64,000 nt of DNA, taken from positions 75,454-139,453 of the forward strand of contig JACKGH010000002.1 in NCBI GenBank assembly GCA_020632075.1, in the 5' to 3' direction. Source of the stretch: Candidatus Nomurabacteria bacterium (lineage in GTDB: Bacteria > Patescibacteriota > Minisyncoccia > Phycocordibacterales > UBA918). The notes beneath the pieces are model-generated. The model ran no database searches. It saw only the letters and a list, made by a program, of their open reading frames with translations, and was not told the DNA's origin. Shown piece by piece: positions 28,404 through 53,841 of this stretch. The position numbers and the translations under genes were made by a program. Every line of letters starts with the position of its first letter. The stretch's first letter is position 1.

Positions 28404-28440
28404 AACGGGCCAGCAGCGAAGCTGCCGGCCCGTTTTCATT
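28404..28440 (-). terminator. terminator of pilC
   Basis: aaaacgggccagcagc gaa gctgccggcccgtttt. Confidence 0.5.
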
Positions 28441-28454
28441 TGCTCAAGCCTACA

Positions 28455-29672: not shown

Positions 29673-29682
29673 ACAAAATTTG

Positions 29683-30750
29683 TTAGATGAGTCGTTCGAG
29701 ACCCTTCGGATTCACCGAGTACGTGAAGGCATTCTCAACTGTAATGTCTCCATTTTGTACCAAGCGAGCCAGCGATCGGTTCATGTCGATCATACCTTGC
29801 TCGAGACCAGTCTCGATCACTGATGGAATCTCATGAATGCGATTCTCACGGATCAGGTTACTGACCGCAGTGTTGTTGATGAGCAGCTCATAGGCTGGCA
29901 CCAATCCACCCGCAATGTGTGGAATAAGTCGCTGTGAAAAGATCGCGATCAAAGATGAAGCGAGCTGCACTCGGATCTGATCTTGCTGCGCACCCGGAAA
30001 CGAGTCAACAATACGGTTGATAGTCTGAGCCGCGTCGTTGGTGTGAAGTGTTGAATACACCAAGTGACCAGTTTCTGCTGCTGTTACTGCTGCAGCAATG
30101 GTCTCCGTGTTACGCATCTCACCCACCAGAATAACGTCTACGTCTTGGCGTAGCGCTGCGCTAAGCGCTTTTTCAAAATTCACTGTATCAATTCCGATCT
30201 CTCTCTGATCGATCAGCGCCTTTTCTTCAGTGTATACGTACTCGATCGGATCCTCGATCGTCACGATGTGCTCAGCCCGCCCTTTATTGATCAAGTTCAC
30301 CATCGAGGCAAGCGTGGTTGACTTACCCTGTCCTACTGGGCCTACACAAAGAAAGAAACCTTGTGAACGCTGCGTGAAACTCTCAAGAATTGGTGGCAAA
30401 TTAAGCTCTTCAAACGTACGGATCACATTAGGAATGAGACGAAGTGCAATGGCCATACGACCCCGCTGATGAAATGCGTTTCCTCGAAAACGAACACCCT
30501 CAGAGTTTTCATATGAAAAGTCTATCTCACTATACTCCGCATAGCGTTTGTATTGATCTTCACGCATCAGTACCTTTGCGAATCCGTTCACATCTGCATC
30601 GGTCAGGATCGGCTTTTTTAGAAGAGGGATCAGTGTACCCGACACTCGAATAAGCGGATGTGCACCAACTGAAAAGTGCAGGTCAGATGCCTGTTCTTGC
30701 AAGATCAGCTCGATCAACACATTGAGTTCTCGTTTGTAATCAACAGCCAT
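29683..30750 (-). CDS. pilT: twitching-motility retraction ATPase PilT
   Basis: Walker A GPVGQGKSTTLASMV, GEMRNTETIAAAVTAAETGHLV, AAQTINRIVD. Confidence 0.85.
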   Translation of the reverse strand: MAVDYKRELNVLIELILQEQASDLHFSVGAHPLIRVSGTLIPLLKKPILTDADVNGFAKVLMREDQYKRYAEYSEIDFSYENSEGVRFRGNAFHQRGRMAIALRLIPNVIRTFEELNLPPILESFTQRSQGFFLCVGPVGQGKSTTLASMVNLINKGRAEHIVTIEDPIEYVYTEEKALIDQREIGIDTVNFEKALSAALRQDVDVILVGEMRNTETIAAAVTAAETGHLVYSTLHTNDAAQTINRIVDSFPGAQQDQIRVQLASSLIAIFSQRLIPHIAGGLVPAYELLINNTAVSNLIRENRIHEIPSVIETGLEQGMIDMNRSLARLVQNGDITVENAFTYSVNPKGLERLI

Positions 30751-30761
30751 ACATTTGTTAC

Positions 30762-31133
30762 TTACTTTTTTGCCATTGCCTCTACTTTTTTAACCACATC
30801 ACTTGGCACTGCTTCCGCTTTAATAATATACCCATCGGCTCCAGCCTTGGTCGCTTCTTCAATATCTTCATCTTGTCCCTGATTAGACAAAACGATGCAC
30901 TTGGCTTTCATGTCAGGGAACTTTTCACGAATCGCTCTAATAAGTTCTGTTCCTGTCATTCCCGGCATGATCATGTCTAACATAATGACATCAAAATCTT
31001 GCGATCGCTCAAGAACACGCAAAGCAGTGACCGCACCATCAGCAACCTCAACCTCATAGCCAGTATCTTTAAACTTCAGCGCGTACATGTCGCGCAAAAA
31101 AGCGTCATCATCAATGAGAAGTAACTTCATCAC
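30762..31133 (-). CDS. single-domain response regulator (CheY-like receiver)
   Basis: LLIDDD...D(54-like)MIMPGMTG...K receiver signature, 123 aa, embedded between pilT and pilB. Confidence 0.8.
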   Translation of the reverse strand: MMKLLLIDDDAFLRDMYALKFKDTGYEVEVADGAVTALRVLERSQDFDVIMLDMIMPGMTGTELIRAIREKFPDMKAKCIVLSNQGQDEDIEEATKAGADGYIIKAEAVPSDVVKKVEAMAKK

Positions 31134-32943
31134 TACCCATTATAGCCTCTGCCACCTCAATATCATTTAGGTTATCGACAGTATCATAAGTTTCATTTGG
31201 GTCAGTTTCAATACCGATCTTAGTACTAAAGACATTCATTTCTTCGTATGGTATCTCGTGATTAAGCGCCTTGATCATGGCGTCTTCTTGGATAGTGATA
31301 AAGCCATTCTTACGAGCAGCCATGAAGAATTCTTCTTCTGAGGCATTTTTCAAGATCAACTCTTGCATCTCTTCATTGATCTCAAGCACTTCAGTGATCG
31401 CAGTTCGTCCGCTGTAGCCAGTCGCGCAACCAGGTGTCGGTTCTGGATGCAACATCGTGCGACTTTCAGGTATACGCTTATGATACTTCTGTGGCAACGT
31501 CTTAAATGTCTCACTGATACGAGCCTCTGTACTTGGAGAAACTTCTTCTTCACGACCTGTACCATCACACAAGGTACGAGCAAGTCGCTGCGCGATCGTG
31601 AGTTTGAGCGTTGGTGCGATCAGGTACGGATCAATCCCCATGTCGATCAGACGCGGAATCACACCGATCGCGTTGTTGGTGTGAATCGTAGAAAGCACAA
31701 GGTGACCAGTAAGTGCAGCTTGGATAGCCAGCTGTGCAGTTTCAGTATCTCGGATCTCACCTACCATGATAATGTCTGGGTCTTGACGAAGTGCAGCGCG
31801 TAGACCGCGCGCGAAGGTGTACCCGATCTCGGGTCGAACCTGTGACTGACTCACTCCAGACATGTCATACTCAACCGGATCCTCAAGTGACATTACATTC
31901 TTGGTCACCGTATCAACTTCCTGGATCATTCCACGCAATGTAGTTGACTTACCAGAACCAGTTGGACCTGAGATGAGAATGATACCGTATGGTTCCTGCA
32001 CGATCTTTCGGAGCAACTCCATATTTGAGGCAGAAATACCACTCTCTTCAAGCGAGCGAACTCCTTTACTCGTATCCAAAATACGCATTACCACCTTCTC
32101 GCCATGATTGGTAGGCAATACAGATACACGAAAATCGATCTTTCGATCATCAAATGTCGCTGAGAAACGACCATCTTGTGGCCGACGTCGCTCATCAAGA
32201 CGCATCGAAGAGAGTATCTTCACTCGCGCAACCACTGCCATATGCACGTTCTTCGGCAGTGTGAGACTTTTTGCCAACTCACCATCAACACGAAAACGGA
32301 CCGCCACCTCAACCGGACTTGGTTCAATATGAATATCAGACGCACTACCATCCACTGCATACCGCAAAATCGTCGCTACGATCTTTGTAACTGGCGCATC
32401 CTCTTCAATATGCTCCAGTGACTCTTTAGTCTGTACATCTGACTCCTCAAGACTAGCAGCAATTTCTTTATCGAGTTCGCTTTCAAGCGTCTCAAGCGCA
32501 TCACCAACATCACCTTCCAGGTTTGAGTAGAAGTTAAGGATACGAACAATATCCTCATCTGGCATGTAGACGAGCTTGTATGGAATATTGTTCTTGGTGC
32601 TTATGAAGTTAAGCGCCTCACGCATCTGTAGGTTGTCAGGATTGTTGACACCCACCACCAACACATCATCTTCAACCTTAAGGGGCACCATTCGATAGTG
32701 CTGGGCTGATTCTTCTGAAATAAAATCTAGGATCTCCTGAGTAACCGTAAATCCTTCTGGGATATCAAAGACTGGCACCTGATAGAAATCGGCCATAAAC
32801 TGACGAACATCCTCCTTGCTCATGCCGAGTTCTTCAAAAACAGACTCATATGAACGGCCAGTCTCACCGATAATACGCTCAGCCTCCGTAATAAAAGACT
32901 GATCGACCCCACCACGCTCTTGTAATGCCTGCAGCGGATCCAT
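31111..32943 (-). CDS. pilB: type IV pilus assembly ATPase PilB (GspE family)
   Basis: N-terminal GSPII_E_N-like domain, Walker A GPTGSGKSTTL, His-box, 610 aa. Confidence 0.85.
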   Translation of the reverse strand: MDPLQALQERGGVDQSFITEAERIIGETGRSYESVFEELGMSKEDVRQFMADFYQVPVFDIPEGFTVTQEILDFISEESAQHYRMVPLKVEDDVLVVGVNNPDNLQMREALNFISTKNNIPYKLVYMPDEDIVRILNFYSNLEGDVGDALETLESELDKEIAASLEESDVQTKESLEHIEEDAPVTKIVATILRYAVDGSASDIHIEPSPVEVAVRFRVDGELAKSLTLPKNVHMAVVARVKILSSMRLDERRRPQDGRFSATFDDRKIDFRVSVLPTNHGEKVVMRILDTSKGVRSLEESGISASNMELLRKIVQEPYGIILISGPTGSGKSTTLRGMIQEVDTVTKNVMSLEDPVEYDMSGVSQSQVRPEIGYTFARGLRAALRQDPDIIMVGEIRDTETAQLAIQAALTGHLVLSTIHTNNAIGVIPRLIDMGIDPYLIAPTLKLTIAQRLARTLCDGTGREEEVSPSTEARISETFKTLPQKYHKRIPESRTMLHPEPTPGCATGYSGRTAITEVLEINEEMQELILKNASEEEFFMAARKNGFITIQEDAMIKALNHEIPYEEMNVFSTKIGIETDPNETYDTVDNLNDIEVAEAIMGSDEVTSH

Positions 32944-32948
32944 GGTGC

Positions 32949-33305
32949 CTAGATATTTGTTATAACCGGAACTGATGCTGGAGGCTCGAGTTCATCGAAC
33001 ACTTTATCTTCTACTTCGGCAAACGGATCAGATCGGCCAATTGGTGGCTCGACAATATCAGTACGGTAACTTCGAAGTGACGTGAACCGCTCATCATCAA
33101 AAAGACCAACGTTCATCTGCACACCATCTAGCACTTTACCCCGCTCAATAAAAGCTCTTGTATTGGCGATCATGTTATCGAACGTCGGTCGATTCGAATC
33201 AAAATCCAGGGTAGTTGCAGACTTTTGTGTATAGAGATAATACCCGGCAAACGCAACCGTAATGAGTCCGAGAACGATGATTAGATTTACTGCAGTTTTA
33301 CTCAT
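32949..33305 (-). CDS. small single-TM protein in the pilus cluster (PilP-like position)
   Basis: 118 aa with N-terminal TM, between pilB and pilO. Confidence 0.4.
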   Translation of the reverse strand: MSKTAVNLIIVLGLITVAFAGYYLYTQKSATTLDFDSNRPTFDNMIANTRAFIERGKVLDGVQMNVGLFDDERFTSLRSYRTDIVEPPIGRSDPFAEVEDKVFDELEPPASVPVITNI

Positions 33306-33316
33306 ATTCCACGTAC

Positions 33317-33889
33317 TTAACTACTAATTTCTGAAGACATGTACTCATAAGTCATGATCTCAAAATCAGCTGATAGAAAACCACCATCAATTCGTTTGAT
33401 CGACAGGTCGTGGATCTCAAATGGATAATTATTCTGCTCAAGAAGGGTCAAGAAGGTTTTTACTTGATTATAGGTCCCTTCAACTGAAAGACTGAAGCTG
33501 TGTGGCTTTGGCATGTTCAGCGGCTGGCCAGTTCTTGGGTCAGTTGGCACCCTATAATTTTGCACCTTCGCATATGTAACATCGCGATACAACAATCCTG
33601 CCTGCTTAACGATCAGGTACAGATCACGTGGTATATGGATCGAATCAACCGAATCTGGCATGTACGTGTATAACCTTTCCTCATCACGAGTTGGCGTATT
33701 ATCCATACGAGAAACAAGCGTGCGTAACTTTTGGTTCACTGCTTCGACCTGCTCATTTTGCTTTTGATATGCTTCGATCTGTGACTGCACTTCACCAATA
33801 TCAGAAAAAGCTGGTTTTACATATGTGATGATGATCGCTACAGAGATTATCACCATGCCGATCTGTGTGAATAAGCCTTTTGGAATCAT
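33317..33889 (-). CDS. PilO-like pilus assembly protein
   Basis: TM plus coiled coil plus C-terminal domain, overlaps the pilN stop. Confidence 0.55.
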   Translation of the reverse strand: MIPKGLFTQIGMVIISVAIIITYVKPAFSDIGEVQSQIEAYQKQNEQVEAVNQKLRTLVSRMDNTPTRDEERLYTYMPDSVDSIHIPRDLYLIVKQAGLLYRDVTYAKVQNYRVPTDPRTGQPLNMPKPHSFSLSVEGTYNQVKTFLTLLEQNNYPFEIHDLSIKRIDGGFLSADFEIMTYEYMSSEISS

Positions 33890-34614
33890 AGATCATTATC
33901 GTTAACATCGACTGCTGTGGTCGTTGCAATTGGACTAACCGGGCTAGTAACTACTGGTGCAGAAACAGTGATCGGCGCATCAGGCGGAACGTACGGAATA
34001 GCTTCAATCGGTACAGTTAGTTCTACTTTGAAATCAACAGCTGATCGCTGATTCAGGATCGCATTCTTATCTTCTTGTAGCCTCTCTTGAGCAGCGTCAG
34101 CCTCACTTAATGCCTTCACATCCATCACCGAAACGTCTGCGATTATCTCAGAGTCAGTAAAGAGATCACGCTGGAAGATAGTTGAGTCGAACGTGTCTGT
34201 GTTCACTGCAGCAGCAAGCATGTATTCTGAATCCATCTCACGAGTAAGTGATAGGTCTTCAAGCTGCACTGTTCCCGCAGTGGCTGCCTCGAGGGCTTTA
34301 AGAACCGACACTATTGAAACACTACTCTCAACTCGATCCGTTGCTTGTTGAAGTCGTCGGTCAAACTCAAGCACCCGTTGCAGATCAGCCTCACTAAAAC
34401 TAGAGATCCTTGTATTAAGCTGCTCAACTTGAGATTGCCACTCCTTATCAATGTATTGTCCGTAGAAAAAGACACCACCAGTTGCTAGCAATGTAGCGAA
34501 TAGGAGTACATAACTGATCAAAGTAAAAACGTACACCTGCCGAGACATCACTTCACGACGTCGCTTCGCGGGACCACGCTTTGGAATGAACGAGTTATTA
34601 GAAAGATCTGCCAT
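33886..34614 (-). CDS. PilN-like pilus assembly protein
   Basis: Short cytoplasmic N-terminus, TM (VFTLISYVLLFATLLATGGVFF), periplasmic coiled coil. Confidence 0.55.
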   Translation of the reverse strand: MADLSNNSFIPKRGPAKRRREVMSRQVYVFTLISYVLLFATLLATGGVFFYGQYIDKEWQSQVEQLNTRISSFSEADLQRVLEFDRRLQQATDRVESSVSIVSVLKALEAATAGTVQLEDLSLTREMDSEYMLAAAVNTDTFDSTIFQRDLFTDSEIIADVSVMDVKALSEADAAQERLQEDKNAILNQRSAVDFKVELTVPIEAIPYVPPDAPITVSAPVVTSPVSPIATTTAVDVNDNDL

Positions 34615-34668
34615 ACTTTATATTATACGCTCCTTAGTAACAAAAACGGCTAAGTGACTGTGGAAACG

Positions 34669-35757
34669 TTACTCAAATACTCGCAACGCTGCACCAAGCG
34701 CAACAGTAAACGAAGGACCAATGTTTTTCATGTTGTCTTCCATAAAAGCTGGGTACGCGACCTTAGAAAATGGATTCGCCAACAGAATTTCACGACCCAG
34801 TGTCTCTTTAAGATTGCCTACCATGCCTGGGAAGAGTGAACCACCGCCAGACAAGTATATTGAAGTTAGTTTATTGCCGGTTCGATCCTCATACTCTCGC
34901 AGTACCTGATTGAATTCTCGAAATGCCCGATCGTAGCTACTGTCATGCGCTCGTTTCAACTCTGAAAACTGCGCGTCGTTTTTATCGGCGGCTAGCTTGC
35001 GCTGCTCAGCTTCAGAAAAATCAATTGAAAGTGCACTTGCGATCTGCTTGGTTGCCAATGTACCGCCAGCACGGATACGATACATACGCATGAGTAATCC
35101 CTTTCGAGCAATGTAAAGCTTTGATGAAACTGCACCAATATCGATCACTGCAACATTATCTTCATCACTATCAAACAGACTTCGCATCGTACTGAAACAC
35201 TCGATCTCAGTTGGCGGCTGAGTAAGTCCAGCAAACTGCATCAATATCTTGAAGCGTTCTAATGCTGAATTTTGAATCGCAGCAATGAGAACATTACGTC
35301 GATTTTCACTATTCTTCGACGCTTCTTTCTTGGTCACCTCAACCTCAGCCCAGTCCAGCGTAACTTCACTAAGCGATGCAGGAATGACCTTTCGCGCTTC
35401 CACTCGCACCATGGATGAAAGATCAGCATCTGGATCCGCTTCAATACTCACGTTGGTCACAAAACTCGACGAAAGAGGCATTGCAAACACCGCTTGTCTT
35501 CCTTGTACAGCTGATTCTCTAATGACGTCAACCAATGCTTCTTGCTCCTGCTTTGGTTCTAGGGTAACTGACTCGCCGATATCTTCTCCAACGTAGGGAC
35601 CAAGTTGCACTTCACCGTATGTCGCGAGCGTAATCACTCCTTTTCGTTCCTGTAACTCAACAACTTTCATTGAAGACGAGCCAACATCAATACCAACCAC
35701 TCCCTTTGCTGAGCTGCTACTCGTTAACGAGGAAAAAATATCACTGAGAGATTTCAT
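34669..35757 (-). CDS. pilM: type IV pilus assembly ATPase-fold protein PilM
   Basis: Actin-like GIDVGSSSMKVVEL...SGGGS pattern, 362 aa. Confidence 0.8.
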   Translation of the reverse strand: MKSLSDIFSSLTSSSSAKGVVGIDVGSSSMKVVELQERKGVITLATYGEVQLGPYVGEDIGESVTLEPKQEQEALVDVIRESAVQGRQAVFAMPLSSSFVTNVSIEADPDADLSSMVRVEARKVIPASLSEVTLDWAEVEVTKKEASKNSENRRNVLIAAIQNSALERFKILMQFAGLTQPPTEIECFSTMRSLFDSDEDNVAVIDIGAVSSKLYIARKGLLMRMYRIRAGGTLATKQIASALSIDFSEAEQRKLAADKNDAQFSELKRAHDSSYDRAFREFNQVLREYEDRTGNKLTSIYLSGGGSLFPGMVGNLKETLGREILLANPFSKVAYPAFMEDNMKNIGPSFTVALGAALRVFE

Positions 35758-36506: not shown

Positions 36507-37214
36507 TCAGGTCAGTACACGACCAACCACTCGATTCCGCCCCTCCTTTTTTGCGTCATACAGAGCCAGATCTGCTTCTTTAAGCAGTTTTTCCGGCGTC
36601 GTTGCGAAACGCGTGTGAGCGGTCCCGACACTGACCGTTACCAGCAGGTCGTTGACGAACTCATGATCCTCGATCGCAGCGCGGATCTCCTCCGCAACTT
36701 CAGCCAACTTCTCAGCCGAAATATTTGGAAACACGACCACGAATTCTTCGCCGCCATACCGTGCCACCAAGTCGGTGTCACGAACGACCGAACGAAGTAC
36801 GCGCGCGATGTCGATCAGCACCTGATCTCCAACATCATGACCGTACGTGTCATTTACCGCCTTGAAGAAATCAGCGTCGATCATGGCTGCTGCCAAGCTT
36901 TGCATCAATCCAGCGCGCTTTTCTTCGGAGTCGCGCCGTAGCAGAGGGCTCGCAAGTGCACTCAGCTGACTGGTCAGTTCACCACGGTTTGCCAGTCCCG
37001 TCATCGGATCACGCTTGGCCGATTCCTCAGCTTGCTGACGGAGCACACGCTCTTGCCGAAGCTGATCCTCAGCAACCAGCGCTCGATCACGCTCCGCGTG
37101 CATTTGATGCATTGAGTTACGAAGCCGGGCCTCCAACTCTCGCTTCTTGAGAAGCATGTAGACTGCGATGAATACGACCAGCCCAAAGACGGTCGCAAGA
37201 ATGATTTCTTTCAC
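36507..37214 (-). CDS. membrane-anchored diguanylate cyclase (GGDEF)
   Basis: TM, coiled coil, then the RYGGEEF active-site motif. Confidence 0.85.
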   Translation of the reverse strand: MKEIILATVFGLVVFIAVYMLLKKRELEARLRNSMHQMHAERDRALVAEDQLRQERVLRQQAEESAKRDPMTGLANRGELTSQLSALASPLLRRDSEEKRAGLMQSLAAAMIDADFFKAVNDTYGHDVGDQVLIDIARVLRSVVRDTDLVARYGGEEFVVVFPNISAEKLAEVAEEIRAAIEDHEFVNDLLVTVSVGTAHTRFATTPEKLLKEADLALYDAKKEGRNRVVGRVLT

Positions 37215-43770: not shown

Positions 43771-44577
43771 ATGTTTGAATCACTCATTGCTGCTGCTGGC
43801 GTCGCCTCCGTCTCACTCGTCGGTGTCTTTTTCTTTGGTAATACAAAGCGACTCATTGGCGCACAGAAGTTTGTTGTTCCAGTTGCAGTTGGTGTCTTCT
43901 TGAGCTTGATCTTGACCGAACTGATCCCAGAGACACTCTCACTTTCACCGGAATGGGGTGGTATTGCCATCGCAGGTGGCTTTATCCTCTTTTACATACT
44001 AGCGAATGCACTGCACCAAAAGTATCACCACCTCGAAAGCGAAGACTGTGATCGTAAGGGTGCTGCGATGCTCTTACTCATCGGTGACGGGATTCACAAT
44101 GTCGCAGACGGTGTCGTCCTTGGTGGTGCGTTTATGGTCGATCCGACCGTAGGTATCGCAACCGCTGTCGGACTAGCGATCCACGAGATCCCGCAGGAGA
44201 TCGTTGAGTTTGGAGTATTGATCCGCGCCGGCTACACCCGCACGAGAGCTGCTCTTCTTAATCTCCTCTCTGCCAGCAGCATTATTGTTGGCGTTGTACT
44301 CATTTTTATCATTGCAGAGCACGCGGAGGATTTTGTATGGCTCATTACTGGAATCGCGGCCGGGAACCTCCTCTTCCTTGCGGCCAGTGATCTCTTACCT
44401 CGCATTCACGGCAACCTCTCACACTACCGGAGTATCTGGCACTCTACTCTTTCGATCATCCTTGGTTTTATCCTCATGACAGTCGTCTTGACCTGGACGC
44501 ACGAACACTTTGGTCATGGTGCTGATGCGCACGACGAGTACGATTCGCACTTACTACATGAGGTGATGGTGGAATGA
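43771..44577 (+). CDS. ZIP-family metal (zinc) transporter
   Basis: LIGDGIHNVADG...LAIHEIPQEI His/Glu metal-binding helices. Confidence 0.75.
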   Translation: MFESLIAAAGVASVSLVGVFFFGNTKRLIGAQKFVVPVAVGVFLSLILTELIPETLSLSPEWGGIAIAGGFILFYILANALHQKYHHLESEDCDRKGAAMLLLIGDGIHNVADGVVLGGAFMVDPTVGIATAVGLAIHEIPQEIVEFGVLIRAGYTRTRAALLNLLSASSIIVGVVLIFIIAEHAEDFVWLITGIAAGNLLFLAASDLLPRIHGNLSHYRSIWHSTLSIILGFILMTVVLTWTHEHFGHGADAHDEYDSHLLHEVMVE

Positions 44578-45162: not shown

Positions 45163-45984
45163 ATGGAACCAATCCTACTCGCGTTCCTGGTCACCCTCGG
45201 AGCCGGTCTTGCAACCGGAATCGGGAGTTTCCTCGCGTTCGCAGCAAAAGACACAAACAAAAAATTCTTATCCTTCATGCTCGGCCTTTCGGCCGGTGTG
45301 ATGATCTATGTCTCACTGGTTGAGATATTTCAAAAGGCAGTTACCTCGCTTGGTGAAGCCTTTGGTGATCATGCCACTGGCTACCTCTGGGCTACCATCG
45401 GCTTCTTTGGTGGCGTGGCCGTGATCTGGATCATCGATCACTTCATGCACGGCAGTGCTGAAGGCAGTCCGCACGAAGCGCATGAAGCACACGAAATGGA
45501 CCACCCAGACAAAGAGGAGCATGAAAAACGCGCTCTCCTCAAAATGGGAACCTTCACTGCGCTCGCTATCGCGATCCACAACTTTCCCGAAGGACTTGCG
45601 ACTTTCTTGGCAACCATGAACGAACCAGCGCTTGGTATCTCACTCGCGATCGCGATCGCGATCCACAACGTACCTGAAGGTGTGGCAGTATCCATCCCGA
45701 TCTACCATGCTACCGGTAGCCGCGTGAAGGCATTCTGGTATTCATTTGCCTCAGGCCTGGCCGAACCGGTCGGTGCCCTACTCGGCTACTTCCTCCTGAT
45801 CCAGTTCATCAGTGATCAGGTATTCGGAGTGATCTTCGCTGGCGTGGCGGGTATCATGGTGTTCATTGCACTTGATGAACTCCTCCCCGCTGCACAGAAG
45901 TATGGCTACCATCATCATTCGATCATCGGTGCCATCATCGGCATGGGAATCATGGCGGTCAGCTTGGTACTCTTCCTCTTTTAG
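45163..45984 (+). CDS. zupT: ZIP-family zinc transporter ZupT-like
   Basis: His-rich loop HEAHEAHEMDHPDKEEHE. AIAIHNFPEGLA and AIAIHNVPEGVAV motifs. Confidence 0.8.
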   Translation: MEPILLAFLVTLGAGLATGIGSFLAFAAKDTNKKFLSFMLGLSAGVMIYVSLVEIFQKAVTSLGEAFGDHATGYLWATIGFFGGVAVIWIIDHFMHGSAEGSPHEAHEAHEMDHPDKEEHEKRALLKMGTFTALAIAIHNFPEGLATFLATMNEPALGISLAIAIAIHNVPEGVAVSIPIYHATGSRVKAFWYSFASGLAEPVGALLGYFLLIQFISDQVFGVIFAGVAGIMVFIALDELLPAAQKYGYHHHSIIGAIIGMGIMAVSLVLFLF

Positions 45985-46043: not shown

Positions 46044-47432
46044 TCATTCATCTTCAAGATCGAGGAACTCCAAGAGCAGCGAAGCATACACCCCACCAAA
46101 GCCGAAGCTATTGAGGAGCACCCAGATTGAGTCTTGCACGATCGTAGTCCGAACATGATTGACCACATCGCACTCCGGATCGAGGGACCCATCGGCTTCA
46201 AGACCACGTGTCGGTGGAATGAGTCCAGCCTGCACGAAGCTGATAACTGCCACAAGCTCTGCGATGGCTGCCGCTCCGAGCAGGTGCCCGATGTACGACT
46301 TCATCGACATAACTTTGATCTCAGCAGCTATCACAGAGACCGCATCAGCTATAAGCGCATACTCCGGATCAGATTCGACCTCTTCCCAGGTCAATCCTTC
46401 TTTCAGATACATACCGAGTTCCGGGAAGCGTGCGATATCTTTGAACATTTCCTGCAACGCCAGTCTGACGACGGCATTTGTTTCAGCGATATCACCCGCT
46501 CCAGTGCCAGTACCATGAACCTTGATCCAGTCGACATCTTCGAGCGGCACACGAGCTTTTGCCAATGCCAAGCCCATGACCATTGCCGCAGCTTCAGCAT
46601 TCGGACTTGTAATAGAGCCGCCAGTCGTACCGCCACCACAGTCACCATAGCCAGCGATCTTTACAATCGGCTTGAGACCGAGCTTGCGCGCCTTGGCGTA
46701 CGTCATCATAACGATCGCCGCAGCACCTTCACCCATCACGAATCCGTCCCGATCAGTATGGAACGGCAAGCCCTTCCCAAGCACACCTTGCACCTGGAAG
46801 GAACCGATGCCAAAGTCAGAAATCCCGGCTTCGGCGCCAACCACGAGACCAGCTTCTGCATCGCCAGCCCGGATGATTCGAATCATGTCGATAATCGCAA
46901 TCGCCGACGCGGCACAAGCATCACCCTTCACACCAACCGGGCCGGTGAAGCCGTACTTCTCGATGAGATACCCTTGCAGAATGTTCGGCAAGTAGCCGAG
47001 ATTGTAATGAATCTTGCGCAGCGGTTTCCCAGCTGCCAAAACCGCCTCGGCTTCAGCGACGGTATTGAGACCTGCTCCACCTGTAGCGGTTGTGCACGCA
47101 AACCGCGACACGTCGATACCTTCAAGCGGAGCCATGGCTTCTTTCGCCGCGATCAGCCCGAAGAGCTGATGCCGGTCATACCGTTTCGCCTCTTTTCTCG
47201 TGAGTCCAGCCAGTTCGGCCAGCTCACCATCAGTGAGGGGCACCGGCGCTACCAAGGCAGTACTGAGCGATGTGTCTCGTGTCGAGAAGTCGATCGGCAT
47301 GTATTTGTCGGCCTTACCGACAGTTATAAACTCCGGACCGCCTACCTTGAGCATTTCGATACGCTCGTCGACAGTCGTACCAGCGCCATCGATCGCACCC
47401 ATACTCACGATCACGATATCTGTGTCTTTCAT
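46044..47432 (-). CDS. beta-ketoacyl-ACP synthase (KAS I/II-like, thiolase fold)
   Basis: Active-site Cys GVKGDACAASAIAI, His motifs KVHGTGTGAGD and KSYIGHLLGAAA, C-terminal NSFGFGG. Start at MKDTDIVIV (ATG 47432) with a GGGGGAG SD. Confidence 0.8.
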   Translation of the reverse strand: MKDTDIVIVSMGAIDGAGTTVDERIEMLKVGGPEFITVGKADKYMPIDFSTRDTSLSTALVAPVPLTDGELAELAGLTRKEAKRYDRHQLFGLIAAKEAMAPLEGIDVSRFACTTATGGAGLNTVAEAEAVLAAGKPLRKIHYNLGYLPNILQGYLIEKYGFTGPVGVKGDACAASAIAIIDMIRIIRAGDAEAGLVVGAEAGISDFGIGSFQVQGVLGKGLPFHTDRDGFVMGEGAAAIVMMTYAKARKLGLKPIVKIAGYGDCGGGTTGGSITSPNAEAAAMVMGLALAKARVPLEDVDWIKVHGTGTGAGDIAETNAVVRLALQEMFKDIARFPELGMYLKEGLTWEEVESDPEYALIADAVSVIAAEIKVMSMKSYIGHLLGAAAIAELVAVISFVQAGLIPPTRGLEADGSLDPECDVVNHVRTTIVQDSIWVLLNSFGFGGVYASLLLEFLDLEDE

Positions 47433-47583
47433 CTTCTCCCCCTCTGCAATTTGCAGAAATTTGTAAACAACAAAACCTGTAGTTTGTACAGATAAAACCT
47501 GCTGGCACTGTAACACACTCCATAAAAAATGGAATCCCGCTCCCGCTTTTTTGCCATACAAGAGGAGGGGGGATAATCCATCA

Positions 47584-47611
47584 TTGACAGATTTTTTATA
47601 TACTGTATATT
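47584..47611 (+). promoter_or_regulatory. strong sigma70-type promoter
   Basis: TTGACA-N16-TATATT. Confidence 0.55.
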
Positions 47612-47692
47612 CGTGCGGTGTTTCACCCAGAAACACCACCCACTTCCCCGGTTTCGGGCGGGTGTAGTTCCACCACACAAGAGGAAATCCCC

Positions 47693-47980
47693 TTGAACCA
47701 GACCAATCCGTTCAGCCTGCAGATCAACAACGGCGCGACCATCACGATCAATAACATCGGTGACATCACCGACCAGGTGACCGACGGGTACCGCAAGATC
47801 TCCGGCAGCATCACCGACGACAACGGCACGCGCGAGATCCACTCGCCCGAGTTCAAGATCACGAAACCTGGCAACCTCAAGTTCCGCGACTTCGCCAACA
47901 TGAGCCCGGACGATCGCATGATGTCCCTGGCCATCATGCACGTGATCACCGTCGGCGACCTGAACGCCATCGCGGCGTAA
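47693..47980 (+). CDS. GC-rich hypothetical protein (about 95 aa from a TTG start; 120 aa if a leaderless GTG at 47618 is used)
   Basis: AGAGGA SD before TTG 47693. About 60 % GC with GC3-rich codons. The leader is about 75 nt and contains the hairpin ggtgtttcacccagaaacacc. Confidence 0.45.
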   Translation: MNQTNPFSLQINNGATITINNIGDITDQVTDGYRKISGSITDDNGTREIHSPEFKITKPGNLKFRDFANMSPDDRMMSLAIMHVITVGDLNAIAA

Positions 47981-47996
47981 ACGGCTACGGCCTGCG

Positions 47997-48023
47997 GCCC
48001 CTCCAGCTTGGAGGGGCTTTTTT
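47997..48023 (+). terminator. intrinsic terminator
   Basis: gcccctcca gct tggaggggc plus tttttt. Confidence 0.65.
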
Positions 48024-48074
48024 AATGCTAAAGAAAGTGGCCGGCGCCGAAGGCGCCGGCCATTTTCTTTTCAC

Positions 48075-48881
48075 CTATCCAAGTGCTACATCAAGTGTCA
48101 TCATGACCGCAAAGCCGATCATCGCTCCGGTAGTAGCCAGATCTGTCATTCCCATACCGCCACGCTGTGCTTCCGGGATCAATTCTTCCACCACCACAAA
48201 CAGCATTGCACCAGCCGCAAATGCCAGTGCGTACGGCAAGATAGGTGTCGCCACAAGCACCACCGCAGCGCCGATCACAGCCGCGATCGGCTCAACCGCA
48301 CCCGATAGCTGCCCAAACCACCATGCCTTCTTTCGACTAAATCCTTCACGACGAAGTGGTACTGATACTGCGGCTCCTTCTGGGAAGTTCTGAATACCGA
48401 TACCAACAGCGAGCGCAATTGCCCCTGCCAGCGTCGCACTTTCAAGCCCAGCATACGCAGCTCCAAACGCCACACCAACTGCGAGTCCTTCCGGAATGTT
48501 ATGCAGTGTGATAGCAGACACCAAGAGAATACTGCGATGCCAAGACGTCTTCGGCCCTTCAGCATCCTCCTTCGGGAAGCCCATGTGCAGGTGCGGAATG
48601 ACTTTATCCATCACCCACAGCGTAGCAACACCGAGTAAAAATCCGATCAGAGGCTGCACCCAACCACCATCTGACATTTCGATCGCAGGCGAAAGCAGCG
48701 ACCAAAAGCTCGCAGCGATCATCACCCCAGCTGCAAAGCCGAGCATCGCGTTCAAGATGCGCTTATTGATTTCCTTAAAGAAGATCACGATAGTGGCACC
48801 AAGCGCGGTGACACTCCAAGTAAAAAGTCCGGCAAGCAACGCTTGCTCAACTGGACCAAGTCCAATAAACCATTCAACCAT
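48075..48881 (-). CDS. ZIP-family metal transporter (GufA/ZupT-like)
   Basis: [16 protein letters not shown] and [13 protein letters not shown] motifs, eight TM helices. Confidence 0.75.
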
Positions 48882-49010
48882 ACGTTGTTAGTTACAATTA
48901 TTATTCATGAGTTCAGAGAGAAATAAGAACTCTTTAGTAAGTGGAGCTGTTTAAAGCTACATTTGTAGTATACGGACAAGATCGATTTTCAGCAAGTAGG
49001 TTAGGAACAG

Positions 49011-49048
49011 GCGCGAAAAAGCCGGACCTCCGTCCGGCTTTTTCGCGC
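49011..49048. terminator. bidirectional terminator
   Basis: gcgcgaaaaagccggac ctcc gtccggctttttcgcgc, a perfect 17-bp stem. Confidence 0.65.
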
Positions 49049-49057
49049 CCACTTCCA

Positions 49058-50206
49058 CTACTTCTTGATCGCGCTCGCCACTGCTTTTACCAAGCCTGGC
49101 GTCATGACCGACGGAATAACATTGTCAGCCGTTGGTTTCTTGATGAGTGCTGCGATCTTCTTTGCAGCTGCGATCTTCATCTCGTCAGTGATCTCAGTCA
49201 CACCGTGATCAAGCGCACCACGGAAAATTCCTGGAAATGCGAGTGAGTTATTTACCTGATTAGGAAAATCAGACCGGCCCGTAGCGATCACGATCGCTCC
49301 GGCACGCTTTGCATCCTCCGGCATGATCTCTGGAACCGGATTCGCGAGCGCAAACACGATCGGCGATTTTGACATCCGCTCGATATGAGCCTGTGCGATC
49401 GTACCCGGACCAGACACACCAATGATCACATCAACCCCATCAACCACCTGCATCACATCTCCTGAGAGATTATTTGGATTCGTCACCTTCGCCAAGTCCT
49501 TCTTGTATCCCTCAAGTCCCGGTCGGCCTTCATAGATCGCGCCCCGTGAATCTACCACCACAACATCTACAACCCCAGCTTTAACCAACATAAGCGCAGT
49601 CGCCCGGCCGGCCGCACCAGCCCCCACGATCACCACCCTGAGTTTCTTTAGCTGTTTTCCCACTACTTTCACTGCATTTAAAAGACCGGCCAACACTACC
49701 ACTGCCGTACCGTGCTGATCATCATGCATCACCGGGATCGAAAGCTCAGCCTTGAGTCGTTCCTCAATTTCAAAACACTTTGGCGCAGCAATATCTTCGA
49801 GGTTAATACCACCAAACCCCGGAGCGATCAGTTTCACCGTACGAATGATCTCTTCTGGCTCATCGGTATCGAGCACGATCGGAACTGCATCCACATCAGC
49901 CATTTCTTTGAAGATCGCCGCTTTCCCTTCCATTACCGGCAGTGCCGGGATCGCACCCAAGTCGCCTAGACCAAGCACCGCCGAACCATCACTCACAACT
50001 GCAACCGTATTGCGCTTCATGGTGTAGTTACGAGCTTCCTGTGGCTTCTTGGCCAAAAACGAAGAAACCGCACCGACTCCTGGCGTATACATCGTACTCC
50101 AGTCATCTTTGGTCTTAAGCTTTCCTTTTGTGGCAATACTGATCTTGCCTTTGAGTTTCTTGTGTAAAGCTAGCGCGAGTTTGTTGTAGTCCTTTTTAGC
50201 AGCCAT
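49058..50206 (-). CDS. NAD(P)-dependent malic enzyme (small form)
   Basis: MYTPGVGAV...VVSDGSAVLGLGDLGAIPALPVMEGKAAIF and the NAD-binding VIVGAGAAG. Confidence 0.85.
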   Translation of the reverse strand: MAAKKDYNKLALALHKKLKGKISIATKGKLKTKDDWSTMYTPGVGAVSSFLAKKPQEARNYTMKRNTVAVVSDGSAVLGLGDLGAIPALPVMEGKAAIFKEMADVDAVPIVLDTDEPEEIIRTVKLIAPGFGGINLEDIAAPKCFEIEERLKAELSIPVMHDDQHGTAVVVLAGLLNAVKVVGKQLKKLRVVIVGAGAAGRATALMLVKAGVVDVVVVDSRGAIYEGRPGLEGYKKDLAKVTNPNNLSGDVMQVVDGVDVIIGVSGPGTIAQAHIERMSKSPIVFALANPVPEIMPEDAKRAGAIVIATGRSDFPNQVNNSLAFPGIFRGALDHGVTEITDEMKIAAAKKIAALIKKPTADNVIPSVMTPGLVKAVASAIKK

Positions 50207-50402
50207 GTGATCGTGATGATTTTAAAAATAAGTGCGACAGAGTTTTAGTATACGCCATCAAAATCGGCGGGCAAATTTTCTCCGAAAATTTGCCCGCCCA
50301 ACAAACAAAAAGCCCTTTCGGGCATAAATTTAGGCGGGAAGCTATCGCTTCCCGCCCCTCCTTGCGGACTATTGAGATAATCTCACCGCGTGCCGCGTTG
50401 TG

Positions 50403-50543
50403 TCAGATACCCGGCCCTTTGCCGGTTGTGATCGCTCCGCCACCCCCGCCGAAGCCAGGATTGGCTTTGTTGCGGCGACAGGCCGCACCGACGCACCGGT
50501 CGTCATACTGATCGAGCTCATGCCCGAAAGCGGTCTTCTTCAT
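50403..50543 (-). CDS. unlisted 46-aa GC-rich micro-ORF (cassette 1)
   Basis: AAGGAG SD 7 nt upstream. Translates MKKTAFGHELDQYDDRCVGAACRRNKANPGFGGGGGAITTGKGPGI. Own promoter TTGCGG-N16-TGcTATAAA and terminator. Confidence 0.5.
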   Translation of the reverse strand: MKKTAFGHELDQYDDRCVGAACRRNKANPGFGGGGGAITTGKGPGI

Positions 50544-50640
50544 CGAGTTTCTCCTTGATGGAGGTTACTGTACCAGCCCGCCTCACATTGAGCGCTGGTA
50601 GTTTCTTTATAGCACTATAGCCATAAACCGCAAGTGTTAC
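50544..50640 (-). promoter_or_regulatory. promoter (extended -10 TGCTATAAA) plus hairpin leader of cassette 1
   Basis: cacTTGCGGtttatggctatagTGCTATAAAgaaa, then leader hairpin ccagcgctcaatgtgaggcgggctgg. Confidence 0.45.
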
Positions 50641-50666
50641 ACTTGCACAAGTAAAAAACCGCCGTA

Positions 50667-50690
50667 GGCGGTTGTTGGGGCCATCCTTGG
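50667..50690 (-). terminator. terminator of cassette 2
   Basis: caaccgcc tac ggcggtt plus ttttt on the minus strand. Confidence 0.55.
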
Positions 50691-50724
50691 CCGTAGATAT
50701 CATTCCGTTGACACGTGCCGGCGT

Positions 50725-50823
50725 TCAGACGCCGCTTATGGGCCTTGCGCGGGTGTGGACCGTATTGTTGATCCAGGTCGGATCGGCGATGCGTTCCGTG
50801 AAGTCGGGGGTGTCACGTTTCAT
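50725..50823 (-). CDS. unlisted 32-aa GC-rich micro-ORF (cassette 2)
   Basis: AAAGGAGAT SD. Translates MKRDTPDFTERIADPTWINNTVHTRARPISGV. Promoter TTGCAC-N17-TGcTATAAA and leader hairpin ccagctcctcatagtaggatgacagctgg. Confidence 0.45.
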   Translation of the reverse strand: MKRDTPDFTERIADPTWINNTVHTRARPISGV

Positions 50824-50949
50824 ACTGGATCTCCTTTGCTGGGAGGGTGGTGTGCACCAGCTGTCATCCTACTATGAGGAGCTGGTCTTTTCTTTATAGC
50901 ATTACGGCACACAAAGTGCAAGCTGGTTGTACCTAACGCTGTATAGAAA

Positions 50950-50985
50950 AAAGGCGGGAGAGACTTGCTCACCGCCTTTTGAAAT
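50950..50985 (-). terminator. terminator of the cold-shock protein gene
   Basis: ggcggtgagcaagtctctcccgcc hairpin with a 6-T run on the minus strand. Confidence 0.5.
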
Positions 50986-51005
50986 ACCCGAAGGTAGATT
51001 GAAGA

Positions 51006-51527
51006 TCAGGCCGCAGCCGAAGCGTTGCGATAGATTCGCGCCTCTGCCTCGGCTTCCGACAAAGTGAGCGGACCCGCCGCTACCATGGCGCCGAGACCGT
51101 CGTCCTGACACACTTCGTAGCGCATCGGATGAGTACCCTCGATGATACAGACACAGCGACCGTTCTCGTCGTTCTTTTCGACGATACGTCCAAACTGCTT
51201 CTGCTTCAGACGTGCCGCTTCCGCTGCAGCCAGGGCAGCAGCGACCCGCTTAGCCTCTTCGGCAGCAGCCTGCTTAGCTGCTTCCCGGGCACGAAGGACC
51301 GGCGACTCTTTGCCGCGGATCTTGTGGACGACCGAAACTTCGAGACCTTTCAGACCCATGACGGTCTCGACCTCGATATGCGGCATACCCTTCACGTCCT
51401 TGGCGGTGAAGCCGTATTCCTCGATGGTTCTGATGTGGAGAAAGGCATCACCGCTTTTGAGCGCGACGAAACCCCACCCCTTGTCGTCCTTGAAGAATTT
51501 GACCGAACCTTTTTTGATATTGCTCAT
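51006..51527 (-). CDS. cold-shock-domain protein with a long Ala/Lys-rich and Cys-containing C-terminal extension
   Basis: N-terminal KGSVKFFKDDKGWGFVALKSGDAFLHIRTIEE cold-shock-domain pattern, then an AAEEAKRVAAALAAAEAARLK linker and ...CVCIIEGTHPMRYEVC. Upstream promoter TTGACA..TAAAAAT with a leader of about 70 nt. Confidence 0.65.
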   Translation of the reverse strand: MSNIKKGSVKFFKDDKGWGFVALKSGDAFLHIRTIEEYGFTAKDVKGMPHIEVETVMGLKGLEVSVVHKIRGKESPVLRAREAAKQAAAEEAKRVAAALAAAEAARLKQKQFGRIVEKNDENGRCVCIIEGTHPMRYEVCQDDGLGAMVAAGPLTLSEAEAEARIYRNASAAA

Positions 51528-51657
51528 CATGACCTCCCCGGCCAGTGATTAGATGGAACTAGCTACAAAACGCAGCTTGATACTTGATATTTTTATCATA
51601 AAAAATACTTTTTGTCAATGGTCTCGCAGCGCTAGGTAAATTGGTACAATACGGGAC

Positions 51658-53838
51658 ATGTTATTCACCGACCCACTCACGTCGCACGTTCGAGTTGATA
51701 CTGCTCACCAAAAAGCTCTCAAACGACTTGGTATCGAAACCGTCGGCGACATTCTCTATCACCTCCCTGCTCGGTACGAAGACATTAGCGATGTACAGTC
51801 GGTTGGTGGCCTGGAGAAAGGCCAAGAAGCAGTCGTGTACGGCCAGCTTTCTGGCCTCAAGACCCGCAAAGCCTGGAAGAGTCGTAAGCCGATTGCTGAA
51901 GGCTACGTTGAAGATGGTTCGGCCAAGATGAAGATCATGTGGTTCAACCAGCCATACATCGCCAAGATGTATACCGATGGTATGTATGTGAAGTTGGCAG
52001 GCAAAGTGGCTGGAAGCGAAGACAAGCTGTATCTCAGCAATCCAGAAGTTGAGCCGCTCGATTCACTGCCAATCGATCGCCACGACAGCATCTTTGCTGG
52101 GACCGAAGGCGCCGACGATACGCTCTACCCCGTCTACCGCGAGACCAAGGGCATCACGAGCCGCTGGCTCTACCACACAGTCCTCAAGCTCTTTGAAAAA
52201 GGTGCACTCGATACCCTGAGCGACCCGATCCCGGAAGAGATCCTGAAGAAGTACAAACTTCCGATCCTTAAGACCGCGCTCGTGTGGGTGCACTCGCCCA
52301 AAAAAGCCGCCGATGCTGAAGCAGCGCGCAAGCGCTTTGCCTTTGAAGAGGTCTTCTATATACAAGTCCAGAAAGCACAGGAACGGGCGGCGGTGAGCGC
52401 CGCGCAAACCTACACGATCAAGACGAGCGACGAACACCTCGCGGCCTTTACCGAACGTTTCCCATTCTCGCTCACCGCCGCCCAAGACGACTCGATACAA
52501 TCTATCCTCGCTGACTTCGCCGCCGGCACGCACGCTATGTCGCGCCTCCTTGAAGGAGATGTAGGAAGCGGCAAGACTGCCGTAGCGGCTACTACTGCGT
52601 ATGCCGTCGCTACCTCTCGCCCACCAGAAGGCACGGATAAAAAGATTGAGTACGGGAACCTTCAAGTCGCATACATGGCACCAACTGAAATCCTCGCCAA
52701 GCAACACTTCGAATCGTTCATCGAGTATTTTCATCATCTCCCGATCTCGATCGGGCTCATTACCGGCTCCGGCTGTATGAAGTTCCCCTCGAAGACCGAC
52801 CCGACGAAGCCAACCAAGATCAGCAAGGCGCAGCTCCTGAAGTGGGTCGCCAACGGCGAAGTCCCGATCCTCATCGGCACACATGCACTTATCTATAAGA
52901 GCGTGGAATTCAAACATCTCGCCTACGTGATCATCGACGAGCAGCACCGCTTCGGCACCAACCAGCGCAAGAAGCTCGCCAAGAAAGACGCGCGGCTTCC
53001 ACACCTCCTCTCCATGACTGCCACCCCGATCCCGCGCACACTTGCGCTCACGATCTATGGTGACCTCGACATCACCTTACTTGATCAAATGCCGGCCGGC
53101 CGCAAACCAGTACAGACCACCGTCGTCGGCCCCGGCCAGAGCGCGGAGATGTACGACCACGTCCGCAGTGAGCTTGCGGCCGGCCGGCAAGCCTACGTCA
53201 TCTGCCCGCGCATCGACGAACCAGACCCAACCAAAGAAAACGCGCTCAATATGAAGAGCGTCATCGCCGAAGCCAAGCGCCTGAAGAAAGACGTCTTCCA
53301 AGACTACGTCATCGAACCCCTCCACGGCAAAATGACACCAGCTGAAAAGGACGATGTCATGAAGCGCTTCGCCGAGCACAAGATCGACATTCTCTGCGCC
53401 ACGAGTGTGGTGGAAGTGGGGGTCAATGTCCCGAATGCTACCAACATCATCATCGAAGGCGCGGAGCGCTTTGGCCTGGCGCAGCTCCATCAGCTCCGTG
53501 GGCGCGTCGTGCGCGGTACGCATCAGCCGTACTGTTTTGCGGTGACTGAGTCTAAGAGCGACAAAACCCGCGACCGCCTCAAGGCGCTCGCCACGGCCAA
53601 GAACGGCTTCGAGCTCGCCGAGCACGACTTACAGTTCCGTGGCTCCGGCGAGCTTTACGGCGGCAAGCAAAGCGGCCTCTCCGACCTCGGCATGGAGGCC
53701 ATCCGCAACCTCAAGCTCGTCGAGGCCGCCCGCACCGAGGCCAAGCACCTGGTCGACCAACACTCCGACCTAGCCAAGTCTTTCCCGCTCATCGCGGAGA
53801 AGGTCACGCGGTTGGGTGAAGTGCTGCATATGGAGTAA
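51658..53838 (+). CDS. recG: ATP-dependent DNA helicase RecG
   Basis: N-terminal wedge region (LPARYEDIS), Walker A GDVGSGKTAVA, DEQHRFG (DEQH box), helicase C-terminal motifs, 726 aa. About 60 % GC. Confidence 0.9.
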   Translation: MLFTDPLTSHVRVDTAHQKALKRLGIETVGDILYHLPARYEDISDVQSVGGLEKGQEAVVYGQLSGLKTRKAWKSRKPIAEGYVEDGSAKMKIMWFNQPYIAKMYTDGMYVKLAGKVAGSEDKLYLSNPEVEPLDSLPIDRHDSIFAGTEGADDTLYPVYRETKGITSRWLYHTVLKLFEKGALDTLSDPIPEEILKKYKLPILKTALVWVHSPKKAADAEAARKRFAFEEVFYIQVQKAQERAAVSAAQTYTIKTSDEHLAAFTERFPFSLTAAQDDSIQSILADFAAGTHAMSRLLEGDVGSGKTAVAATTAYAVATSRPPEGTDKKIEYGNLQVAYMAPTEILAKQHFESFIEYFHHLPISIGLITGSGCMKFPSKTDPTKPTKISKAQLLKWVANGEVPILIGTHALIYKSVEFKHLAYVIIDEQHRFGTNQRKKLAKKDARLPHLLSMTATPIPRTLALTIYGDLDITLLDQMPAGRKPVQTTVVGPGQSAEMYDHVRSELAAGRQAYVICPRIDEPDPTKENALNMKSVIAEAKRLKKDVFQDYVIEPLHGKMTPAEKDDVMKRFAEHKIDILCATSVVEVGVNVPNATNIIIEGAERFGLAQLHQLRGRVVRGTHQPYCFAVTESKSDKTRDRLKALATAKNGFELAEHDLQFRGSGELYGGKQSGLSDLGMEAIRNLKLVEAARTEAKHLVDQHSDLAKSFPLIAEKVTRLGEVLHME

Positions 53839-53841
53839 TGC

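Follow-up and report, generated by a model that had tools for sequence, protein, structure and literature searches.

The stretch analysed here, 64 kb of a Candidatus Nomurabacteria chromosome (the window, whose positions are used throughout and refer to the + strand unless stated otherwise), carries a small G+C-rich gene with its own predicted expression signals. The gene, an open reading frame (ORF) of 95 codons referred to here as ORF95, lies between KS, a stand-alone beta-ketoacyl synthase gene that is divergently oriented (46044-47432, - strand), and the ZIP-family transporter gene ZipC, which is convergent with it (48075-48881, - strand). ORF95 and its signals together are termed the cassette. 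Gene order across the neighbourhood is LeuRS, ZipA, a PCC-domain protein, ZipB, KS, the cassette, ZipC, malic enzyme, a gene-poor 0.8-kb stretch, a gene with a partial cold-shock domain (the CSD-like gene) and RecG.

All of the elements proposed in the initial annotation, namely a TTGACA-N16-TATATT promoter, a structured leader of about 75 nucleotides (nt), a Shine-Dalgarno sequence, a small ORF and a strong terminator, were recovered at 47584-48023. The predicted sigma-70-type promoter (47584-47611) comprises TTGACA (47584-47589), a 16-nt spacer and TATATT (47606-47611), agrees with the consensus at 11 of 12 positions, and is one of only two sites reaching at least this level when both strands of the window were scanned. 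A 13-nt perfect palindrome read from the sequence (ATATAC-t-GTATAT, 47598-47610) overlaps the -10 box and could be an operator or the chance outcome of a TATA-rich -10. With transcription taken to begin ~6-8 nt 3' of the -10 box, at ~47617, the leader extends over ~47617-47692 and is predicted to fold into three hairpins (-28.2 kcal/mol, z -2.2). Hairpin 1 (GGTGTTTCACCCAGAAACACC, 47617-47637), with an 8-bp stem present in both the minimum-free-energy and the centroid fold, would stand at or adjoining the 5' end of the transcript, whereas hairpin 3 (47678-47695) lies at the other end of the leader, where the Shine-Dalgarno sequence AAGAGGA (47679-47685), 7 nt 5' of the TTG start at 47693, pairs weakly with CCCCUUG including the UUG start codon itself (47693-47695). 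Between them, hairpin 2 (47641-47664; 9 bp, one bulge) is not followed by a U-run and so would not be an attenuator terminator. Comparison of the leader with the Rfam covariance models gave no match at gathering thresholds, nor at E values up to 5 across 47400-51100, where the weak matches fell on terminators only; given this and the missing U-run, there is no recognisable riboswitch or attenuator.

ORF95 itself occupies 47693-47980, from the TTG to the TAA at 47978-47980, and is followed by a predicted intrinsic terminator at 47996-48023, consisting of a 10-bp stem (47996-48018, seven G-C pairs), a 3-nt loop and six T residues, whose fold (z -2.9) was equalled in 0 of 200 shuffles. Immediately beyond it, a bidirectional terminator hairpin (48030-48070), with runs of A and T on its sides and 19-nt arms that are 95% complementary, is predicted to end the convergent ZipC gene and to back up the cassette's own terminator. 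A minus-strand promoter-like site within the cassette was looked for and not found. A longer ORF of 120 amino acids (aa) beginning at GTG 47618 was rejected: this GTG falls at the predicted transcript start inside hairpin 1, the G+C content at third codon positions (GC3) is 0.52 upstream of the TTG, and the homologue described below keeps the Shine-Dalgarno sequence and the TTG, not the upstream peptide. The cassette therefore reads, from its predicted signals, as a real self-contained single-gene transcription unit. Elsewhere in the window, the only perfect consensus promoter (TTGACA-17-TATAAT, 37280, - strand) lies upstream of a diguanylate-cyclase-like GGDEF gene with a GGEEF motif (36507-37157, - strand).

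The description of the cassette as self-contained was further borne out by the recurrence of the same design around the only homologue of ORF95, termed P0002, which is carried by a 739-bp ENA contig (L011) from a related low-G+C genome. The database call for P0002 (L011 150-485, 111 aa) reads through an in-frame TGA and thereby includes an artefactual 20-residue N-terminus; translation with genetic code 11 places the conserved start at TTG L011:210, which aligns with the TTG of the window. The L011 promoter is CATTGACA-N16-TATAGT, with TTGACA as its -35 element, and the stretch common to both promoters reads CATTGACA...TATA.TC.TGCGGTG, in which TGCGGTG would be the first transcribed bases. The palindrome over the -10 box is not kept as such, an 8-nt palindrome (CTATATAG) standing at the same place. 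The L011 leader differs in sequence, yet is predicted to form the same three hairpins in the same order (z -1.9): the equivalent of hairpin 1 has 7 bp at the same position with another sequence, that of hairpin 2 has 8 bp, and that of hairpin 3 pairs AAAGA with UCUUU at the same place. AAGAGGA, the 7-nt spacing and the TTG start are common to the two cassettes, and a terminator of 12 bp (z -4.7) is found at the same place. These correspondences suggest that the conserved unit is the whole cassette rather than the ORF alone.

ORF95 is truly protein-coding, with the sense frame the best conserved. The alignment of the sense-frame proteins scores 150, compared with at most 96 for any other pair of frames; nucleotide identity by codon position is 0.61/0.69/0.41, and the ratio of non-synonymous to synonymous divergence (dN/dS) is ~0.30, with dS near saturation. 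An alternative in which there is no protein gene on the + strand, and in which either the antisense ORFs (47623-47970, 115 aa; 47429-47941, 170 aa) or a structured RNA is the real product, draws on the presence of these long antisense ORFs and on the fact that the antisense frame sharing wobble positions is open across the gene in both genomes (47623-47970 in the window; L011 185-493, - strand, 102 aa). This frame is probably a by-product, being open because T-ending codons are few and Tyr is rare, which on this reasoning leaves it nearly automatically free of stops. The best antisense pairs score only 96 and 65 against the 150 of the sense frame, promoter, Shine-Dalgarno sequence, start and terminator face the + strand in both genomes, and no Rfam family was matched, so that this alternative is scarcely credible.

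The product of ORF95 is identical to the GenBank hypothetical protein KC877_02270 of a Candidatus Kaiserbacteria metagenome-assembled genome (GCA_020428695.1). It is a protein of 95 aa (~10.4 kDa, pI 5.1) with no Cys and 2 His, a grand average of hydropathy of -0.34, no signal peptide and no conserved transmembrane segment. Neither its hydrophobic C-terminal stretch (maximum Kyte-Doolittle value over a 19-residue window of 1.50, versus 0.28 in the homologue) nor its net charge (pI 5.1 versus 10.3) is conserved. An AlphaFold2 model built from the two-sequence alignment (mean predicted local distance difference test score 77.8, predicted template-modelling score 0.69) contains three beta-hairpins and a C-terminal helix (residues 72-87). 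The initial remark that the protein matches nothing was upheld for families and folds, with a single homologue to be added. There was no family match at E values up to 1 in Pfam, NCBIfam, PHROGs or PADLOC, the best E value in a sequence-profile search of the PDB was at least 0.4, and Foldseek returned nothing at E <=0.001 against the PDB and BFVD, with query-normalised TM-scores of at most ~0.4. A HMMER scan of 1.84 billion representative proteins recovered one true homologue, P0002 (E 4e-9), with an identity of 43% in that scan and 41% over 90 aligned codons; a further match, to a 2282-aa repeat protein, was judged spurious. A word-indexed search of 5.8 billion proteins, using the single sequence and a two-sequence profile, returned only the two members, while back-translated pattern scans of representative-genome, JGI metagenome and IMG/VR viral collections yielded no further homologue and tblastn against phage and plasmid collections found none. 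The promoter/leader DNA pattern gave 40 matches in metagenomes, mostly one family followed by GAGCCGCTTCGGAGCGG, all of which were unrelated promoters of other bacteria, with 0 having a homologous ORF downstream. The family of ORF95 has two known members, evolving fast but under purifying selection, and the product is modelled as a soluble beta-hairpin-plus-helix protein without a recognisable fold or family relative.

Comparison with a sister metagenome-assembled genome labelled Candidatus Nomurabacteria (HK-STAS-PATE-21; L012, of which 20.8 kb were compared) pointed to an accessory status for the cassette. The two genomes are close (ZipB 94% aa identity, RecG 84% nt identity), and the gene order in L012 is ZipB-KS-ZipC-malic enzyme-RecG, with nothing but the KS promoter blocks and the shared terminator between KS and ZipC. 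The additional DNA of the window, a ~498-bp segment of 56% G+C at ~47532-48029 (ends approximate, within ~10 nt), contains the whole cassette. It is bounded on the left by anchors in the KS promoter region that are common to both genomes (47462-47479, 47499-47514 and 47525-47531) and on the right by the hairpin at 48030-48071, and in L012 the left and right anchors are a few nt apart (12259 to ~12262). The bidirectional terminator hairpin is conserved in L012 at 12262-12309 and is therefore native and outside the additional segment. No copy of ORF95 was found by tblastn in the 20.8 kb of L012. The cassette and its margins thus make up a ~0.5-kb insertion/deletion difference between the two genomes. 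Further, the KS genes of the window and of L012 (10900-12177, - strand) are only 43% identical, although ZipB is 94% identical; the window KS is FabF-like (199 bits, against a cut-off of 494 for the fabF model) and has an insertion of ~38 residues relative to its syntenic counterpart. The KS segment looks replaced or hypervariable in this comparison, and, given the low KS identity, KS and the cassette may have been exchanged as a block.

The atypical composition and the lack of homologues could also be expected if a G+C-rich foreign fragment, or a contaminant, had been misjoined into the metagenome-assembled genome. Ten contigs, assembled independently and from independent samples (NCBI, ENA and Logan), carry an identical 643-bp stretch comprising the cassette and both junctions, with flanks that are at least 99.9% identical, and the homologous cassette lies beside an orthologous Zip gene in a related genome. 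An assembly chimera is ruled out by the ten independent identical copies, and of all the alternatives weighed here a misjoin or contaminant has the least to commend it. As all ten cassette copies are 100% identical, they offered no variation for a within-species test of selection.

The position of the cassette differs between genomes. In L011 it stands directly upstream of the orthologue of ZipB (33 of 37 aa identical), a slot where the window has the PCC gene and L012 a tRNA gene. The ORF fragment upstream of the L011 cassette was compared with the window and with L012 for synteny and gave no match. Two independent random placements beside ZIP genes would be unlikely, and, with the cassette of the window standing tail-to-tail with ZipC inside the ZipA-PCC-ZipB-KS-ZipC cluster, ORF95 could be regarded as an accessory protein of zinc homeostasis tied functionally to these transporters, for instance as a regulator of ZIP activity or as a metal buffer or chaperone in the cytoplasm. 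The protein, with no Cys and only 2 His, has no metal-binding motif of the kind expected of a Zur-regulon-type zinc accessory protein, its pI is not maintained in the homologue, L012 retains ZipB and ZipC without it, and predicted terminators insulate the cassette from the ZIP genes in both genomes. A single insertion in an ancestor, with later local rearrangement of a hypervariable locus, would also account for the common neighbourhood. A role connected with zinc is thus improbable, and ORF95 probably has neither a housekeeping nor a zinc-transport role. As to the transporters themselves, three ZIP-family genes lie within 5 kb (43771-44577, 45163-45984 and 48075-48881), and ZipB is ~60% identical to ZIP proteins of many phyla outside the Candidate Phyla Radiation (CPR), including Bacillota, Desulfobacterota, Bacteroidota and others, and reaches 94% identity solely with that of the sister CPR genome, which suggests that it entered the lineage by horizontal transfer.

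The coding sequence is also atypical in composition, and more strongly so than initially stated. ORF95 has 58.7% G+C, compared with 48.5% for the window and 49% for the genome, and its GC1/GC2/GC3 values are 0.46/0.375/0.927, against a mean GC3 of 0.49 (standard deviation 0.086) for 41 window genes. G or C ends 88 of its 94 codons; with the protein held fixed and codons drawn from window usage, the expected GC3 is 0.494 +/- 0.050 (exact tail P 1.8e-21). No other 240-nt segment of the window is as extreme in composition, and the change is abrupt at the TTG, with GC3 rising from 0.52 in the 25 in-frame codons upstream to 0.93 in ORF95. Neighbouring coding regions are ~0.51-0.55 G+C, so that the contrast in overall G+C is modest and the anomaly lies in the third codon position. 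In the opposite direction, the outliers of the window are a giant 2512-aa ORF (11555-19093, - strand, GC3 0.37) and its 194-aa neighbour (10965-11549, - strand, GC3 0.27). Despite its GC3, ORF95 encodes a protein of AT-rich-type composition: Phe, Tyr, Met, Ile, Asn and Lys, whose codons are AT-rich (FYMINK), make up 0.37 of the residues, compared with 0.25 +/- 0.04 in window genes, and Gly, Ala, Arg and Pro, whose codons are GC-rich (GARP), make up 0.22.

A possible explanation for this bias is that ORF95 is a native, very highly expressed small gene under translational selection for C- and G-ending codons, which L012 has lost. The near-consensus promoter, strong Shine-Dalgarno sequence and two terminators are consistent with high expression, as are the two-fold, pyrimidine-ending NNY codons, nearly all of which end in C (ATC 12/12, AAC 8/10, GAC 8/9, TTC 4/4), and the L011 homologue likewise exceeds the neighbouring Zip fragment in GC3. 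However, the bias is uniform over every codon class, including G-ending NNR codons and four-fold boxes (CGC 4/4, CAG 3/3, GAG 2/2), and it favours codons that are minority choices in the genome, namely AGC (usage 0.12), TCC (0.06), CCC (0.05), GCC (0.16) and CTG (0.16), together with CGC and GGC. Type IV pilin genes are usually abundant in CPR bacteria, and those of the window, taken as a proxy for highly expressed genes, have GC3 values of only 0.37-0.45; as to ribosomal-protein genes as a reference, there were none in the window or in up to ~9 kb recovered beyond its ends. Moreover, the start codon kept in both genomes, TTG, is a weak one and pairs in part with the Shine-Dalgarno sequence. 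The codon usage lends no support to high expression, which had been proposed initially as one possibility. Translational selection is therefore disfavoured as the source of the GC3 bias, and a native, highly expressed gene is an unlikely account of the locus, if the least unlikely of the alternatives weighed here. The pilin genes belong to a long type IV pilus cluster (23805-35757, - strand), in which several pilin-like genes have a FTLIELLVVIAIIGILA-type N-terminus.

Extreme GC3 in a gene for an AT-rich-type protein is best explained as a signature left at synonymous sites and not as adaptation to the translation apparatus of the host. A plain transfer from a high-G+C donor fits poorly, since the protein is of the AT-rich type and no donor was found. 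The initial suggestion that the gene is foreign consequently stands in part: its absence from L012, its other slot in L011 and its atypical codons speak for it, while the missing donor and the AT-rich-type amino acids, which the homologue shares, speak against it. Nor does ORF95 belong to a known conserved family with normal composition in its relatives; it has no known family, although its single relative is near-normal (GC3 0.55).

A second segment absent from L012, of ~1.25 kb and likewise 56% G+C, lies at ~50299-51545, between malic enzyme and RecG, which are adjacent in L012. It contains two micro-ORF units on the - strand (unit 1, 50403-50543, 46 aa, GC3 0.68; unit 2, 50725-50823, 32 aa, GC3 0.76) and the CSD-like gene (51006-51530, - strand, 174 aa). 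Each unit combines a promoter-like site with a 5' ACCAGC...GCTGGT hairpin, an ATG preceded by AAGGAG, and a terminator, and a predicted CCUCC/GGAG pairing would be able to sequester the Shine-Dalgarno sequence. The units had been grouped with the ORF95 cassette as a possible family on the basis of their design. They resemble it in having a promoter-like site, a 5' hairpin, a Shine-Dalgarno sequence, a small orphan ORF of raised GC3 and a terminator, all within strain-specific DNA, but differ in strand, share no sequence with the cassette, and encode unrelated peptides; the 46-aa peptide matched only itself in a homology search. A leader motif shared by all three cassettes was not found either, a 24-nt promoter-proximal block (50594-50617 and 50881-50904, 88% identity) being common to the two micro-ORF units only. 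The micro-ORF peptides are unrelated orphans, and the likeness to the ORF95 cassette is one of design and accessory status, not of family.

Among known systems, the closest resemblance is to phage morons, for which the criteria of the Hendrix/Juhala concept were used as summarised in PMC2920897. Like a moron, the cassette is flanked by two genes (KS and ZipC) that adjoin each other in a relative, has its own predicted promoter and factor-independent terminator, both kept in the homologue, deviates in composition (GC3 0.93 versus 0.49; segment 56% G+C versus 48.5%), and is variably present, in different slots of related genomes and in a local hotspot. Unlike one, it resides in a cellular chromosome, among genes for LeuRS, ZIP transporters, KS, malic enzyme and RecG, with no PHROG matches and no match in phage, viral or plasmid collections, and its deviation is confined to the third codon position. 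Three of the four usual features of a moron are therefore present, and the cassette is to be described as moron-like and not as a moron.

Horizontally acquired ORFan genes form a second point of comparison. ORF95 is like them in having no family, a distribution limited to two genomes, atypical codon usage and fast evolution (41-43% identity, versus ~90% for a neighbouring gene). Typical recent ORFans are A+T-rich relative to their host and often poorly equipped with expression signals, in contrast to the extreme GC3, AT-rich-type amino acids and near-consensus signals of ORF95. With regard to the leader, mRNAs stabilised by 5' stem-loops (ompA-type 5' hairpins) and RNA-thermometer-like Shine-Dalgarno hairpins are known types; the hairpin at the presumed 5' end and the Shine-Dalgarno/start helix, both of which recur in the L011 homologue, recall these, but the helix of the cassette is only 4-6 bp, with no evident ligand- or temperature-sensing architecture and no Rfam match. 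Type I toxin-antitoxin systems, with hydrophobic peptides of <60 aa and an antisense RNA, differ from the 95-aa, hydrophilic product and from a cassette without a minus-strand promoter-like site. Integron cassettes are promoterless ORFs with attC in an intI array, whereas ORF95 is preceded by a predicted promoter of its own and followed by an ordinary terminator hairpin with a T-run; the flanks were found to contain neither an integrase nor a cassette array, and attC was not formally scanned for with a covariance model.

Taken together, the evidence is best read as showing a moron-like autonomous accessory unit in a hypervariable ZIP/KS locus of a CPR bacterium's chromosome. We consider it likely that the structural claims hold jointly, i.e. 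that ORF95 is a real gene, that its cassette is autonomous, that it is accessory, and that its synonymous composition is atypical. In functional terms, the near-consensus sigma-70-type promoter would start transcription at ~47617, and hairpin 1, at the 5' end, would probably protect or stabilise the mRNA. The weak conserved UUG, 7 nt after a strong Shine-Dalgarno sequence that is partly paired with the start, may temper or condition initiation, and the two tandem terminators would insulate the neighbouring genes. The GC3 signature would have been acquired outside the mutational regime of the genome, either during residence on some G+C-rich vector or in a G+C-rich relative, or by GC-biased conversion associated with recombination. 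Conversion of the latter kind is documented for bacterial GC3 (PMC4450053) and would be plausible in this recombination-prone locus.

Several observations weigh against this interpretation. Conservation of the leader fold can be judged from only two family members (z -2.2 and -1.9). High GC3 alone is no proof of foreign origin, since RecG (51658-53838), with a GC3 of 0.71 overall in the window and likewise 0.71 in L012, reaches 0.84-0.89 locally near its 3' end (especially 53460-53840); high-GC3 islands thus occur also in native, vertically shared genes of the lineage. The L011 homologue has a GC3 of 0.55, above the 0.41 of the adjacent Zip fragment, which leaves room for a gene-intrinsic preference for C-ending codons through translational selection. 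Genes of phages or mobile elements were not found, and neither were terminal repeats or a convincing target-site duplication at the segment ends, which show weak GGAGG/TGGA microhomologies only; insertion in this genome, deletion in L012 and replacement of the whole KS-cassette segment by recombination are consequently all compatible with the data. The donor lineage is absent from every protein, genome, metagenome, viral, phage and plasmid collection searched.

As for what ORF95 does, a tentative guess is that its product is a binding protein with an accessory role in conflict or niche adaptation, for example in immunity, anti-defence or regulation, of the sort commonly found in morons. A more far-reaching proposal is that CPR/Patescibacteria chromosomes carry mobile single-gene cassettes equipped with promoter and terminator ('chromosomal morons'), which move between intergenic slots of related genomes and encode no recombinase for the purpose. 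On this view the class would include ORF95, both micro-ORF units and the CSD-like gene, with synonymous sites made G+C-rich by time spent in a G+C-rich vector or by intense GC-biased gene conversion, and the ORF95 product would act as an effector of new fold in conflicts with phages or within episymbiosis. Taken as a whole, this proposal is speculative and unlikely to be correct. ORF95 is instead an unusual but essentially ordinary accessory gene, belonging to a familiar category and giving no sign of a new type of mechanism.

The codon usage of ORF95 is convenient for heterologous expression in Escherichia coli, and the gene adds a very small new family whose fold is predicted with confidence yet has no match. 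Its pairing of low-G+C-type amino acids with high-G+C synonymous sites provides a natural probe for separating horizontal transfer, translational selection and GC-biased gene conversion in Patescibacteria. With an empty site in the sister genome, the cassette is a well-delimited case of the gain or loss of a single gene in the very small genomes of CPR bacteria.

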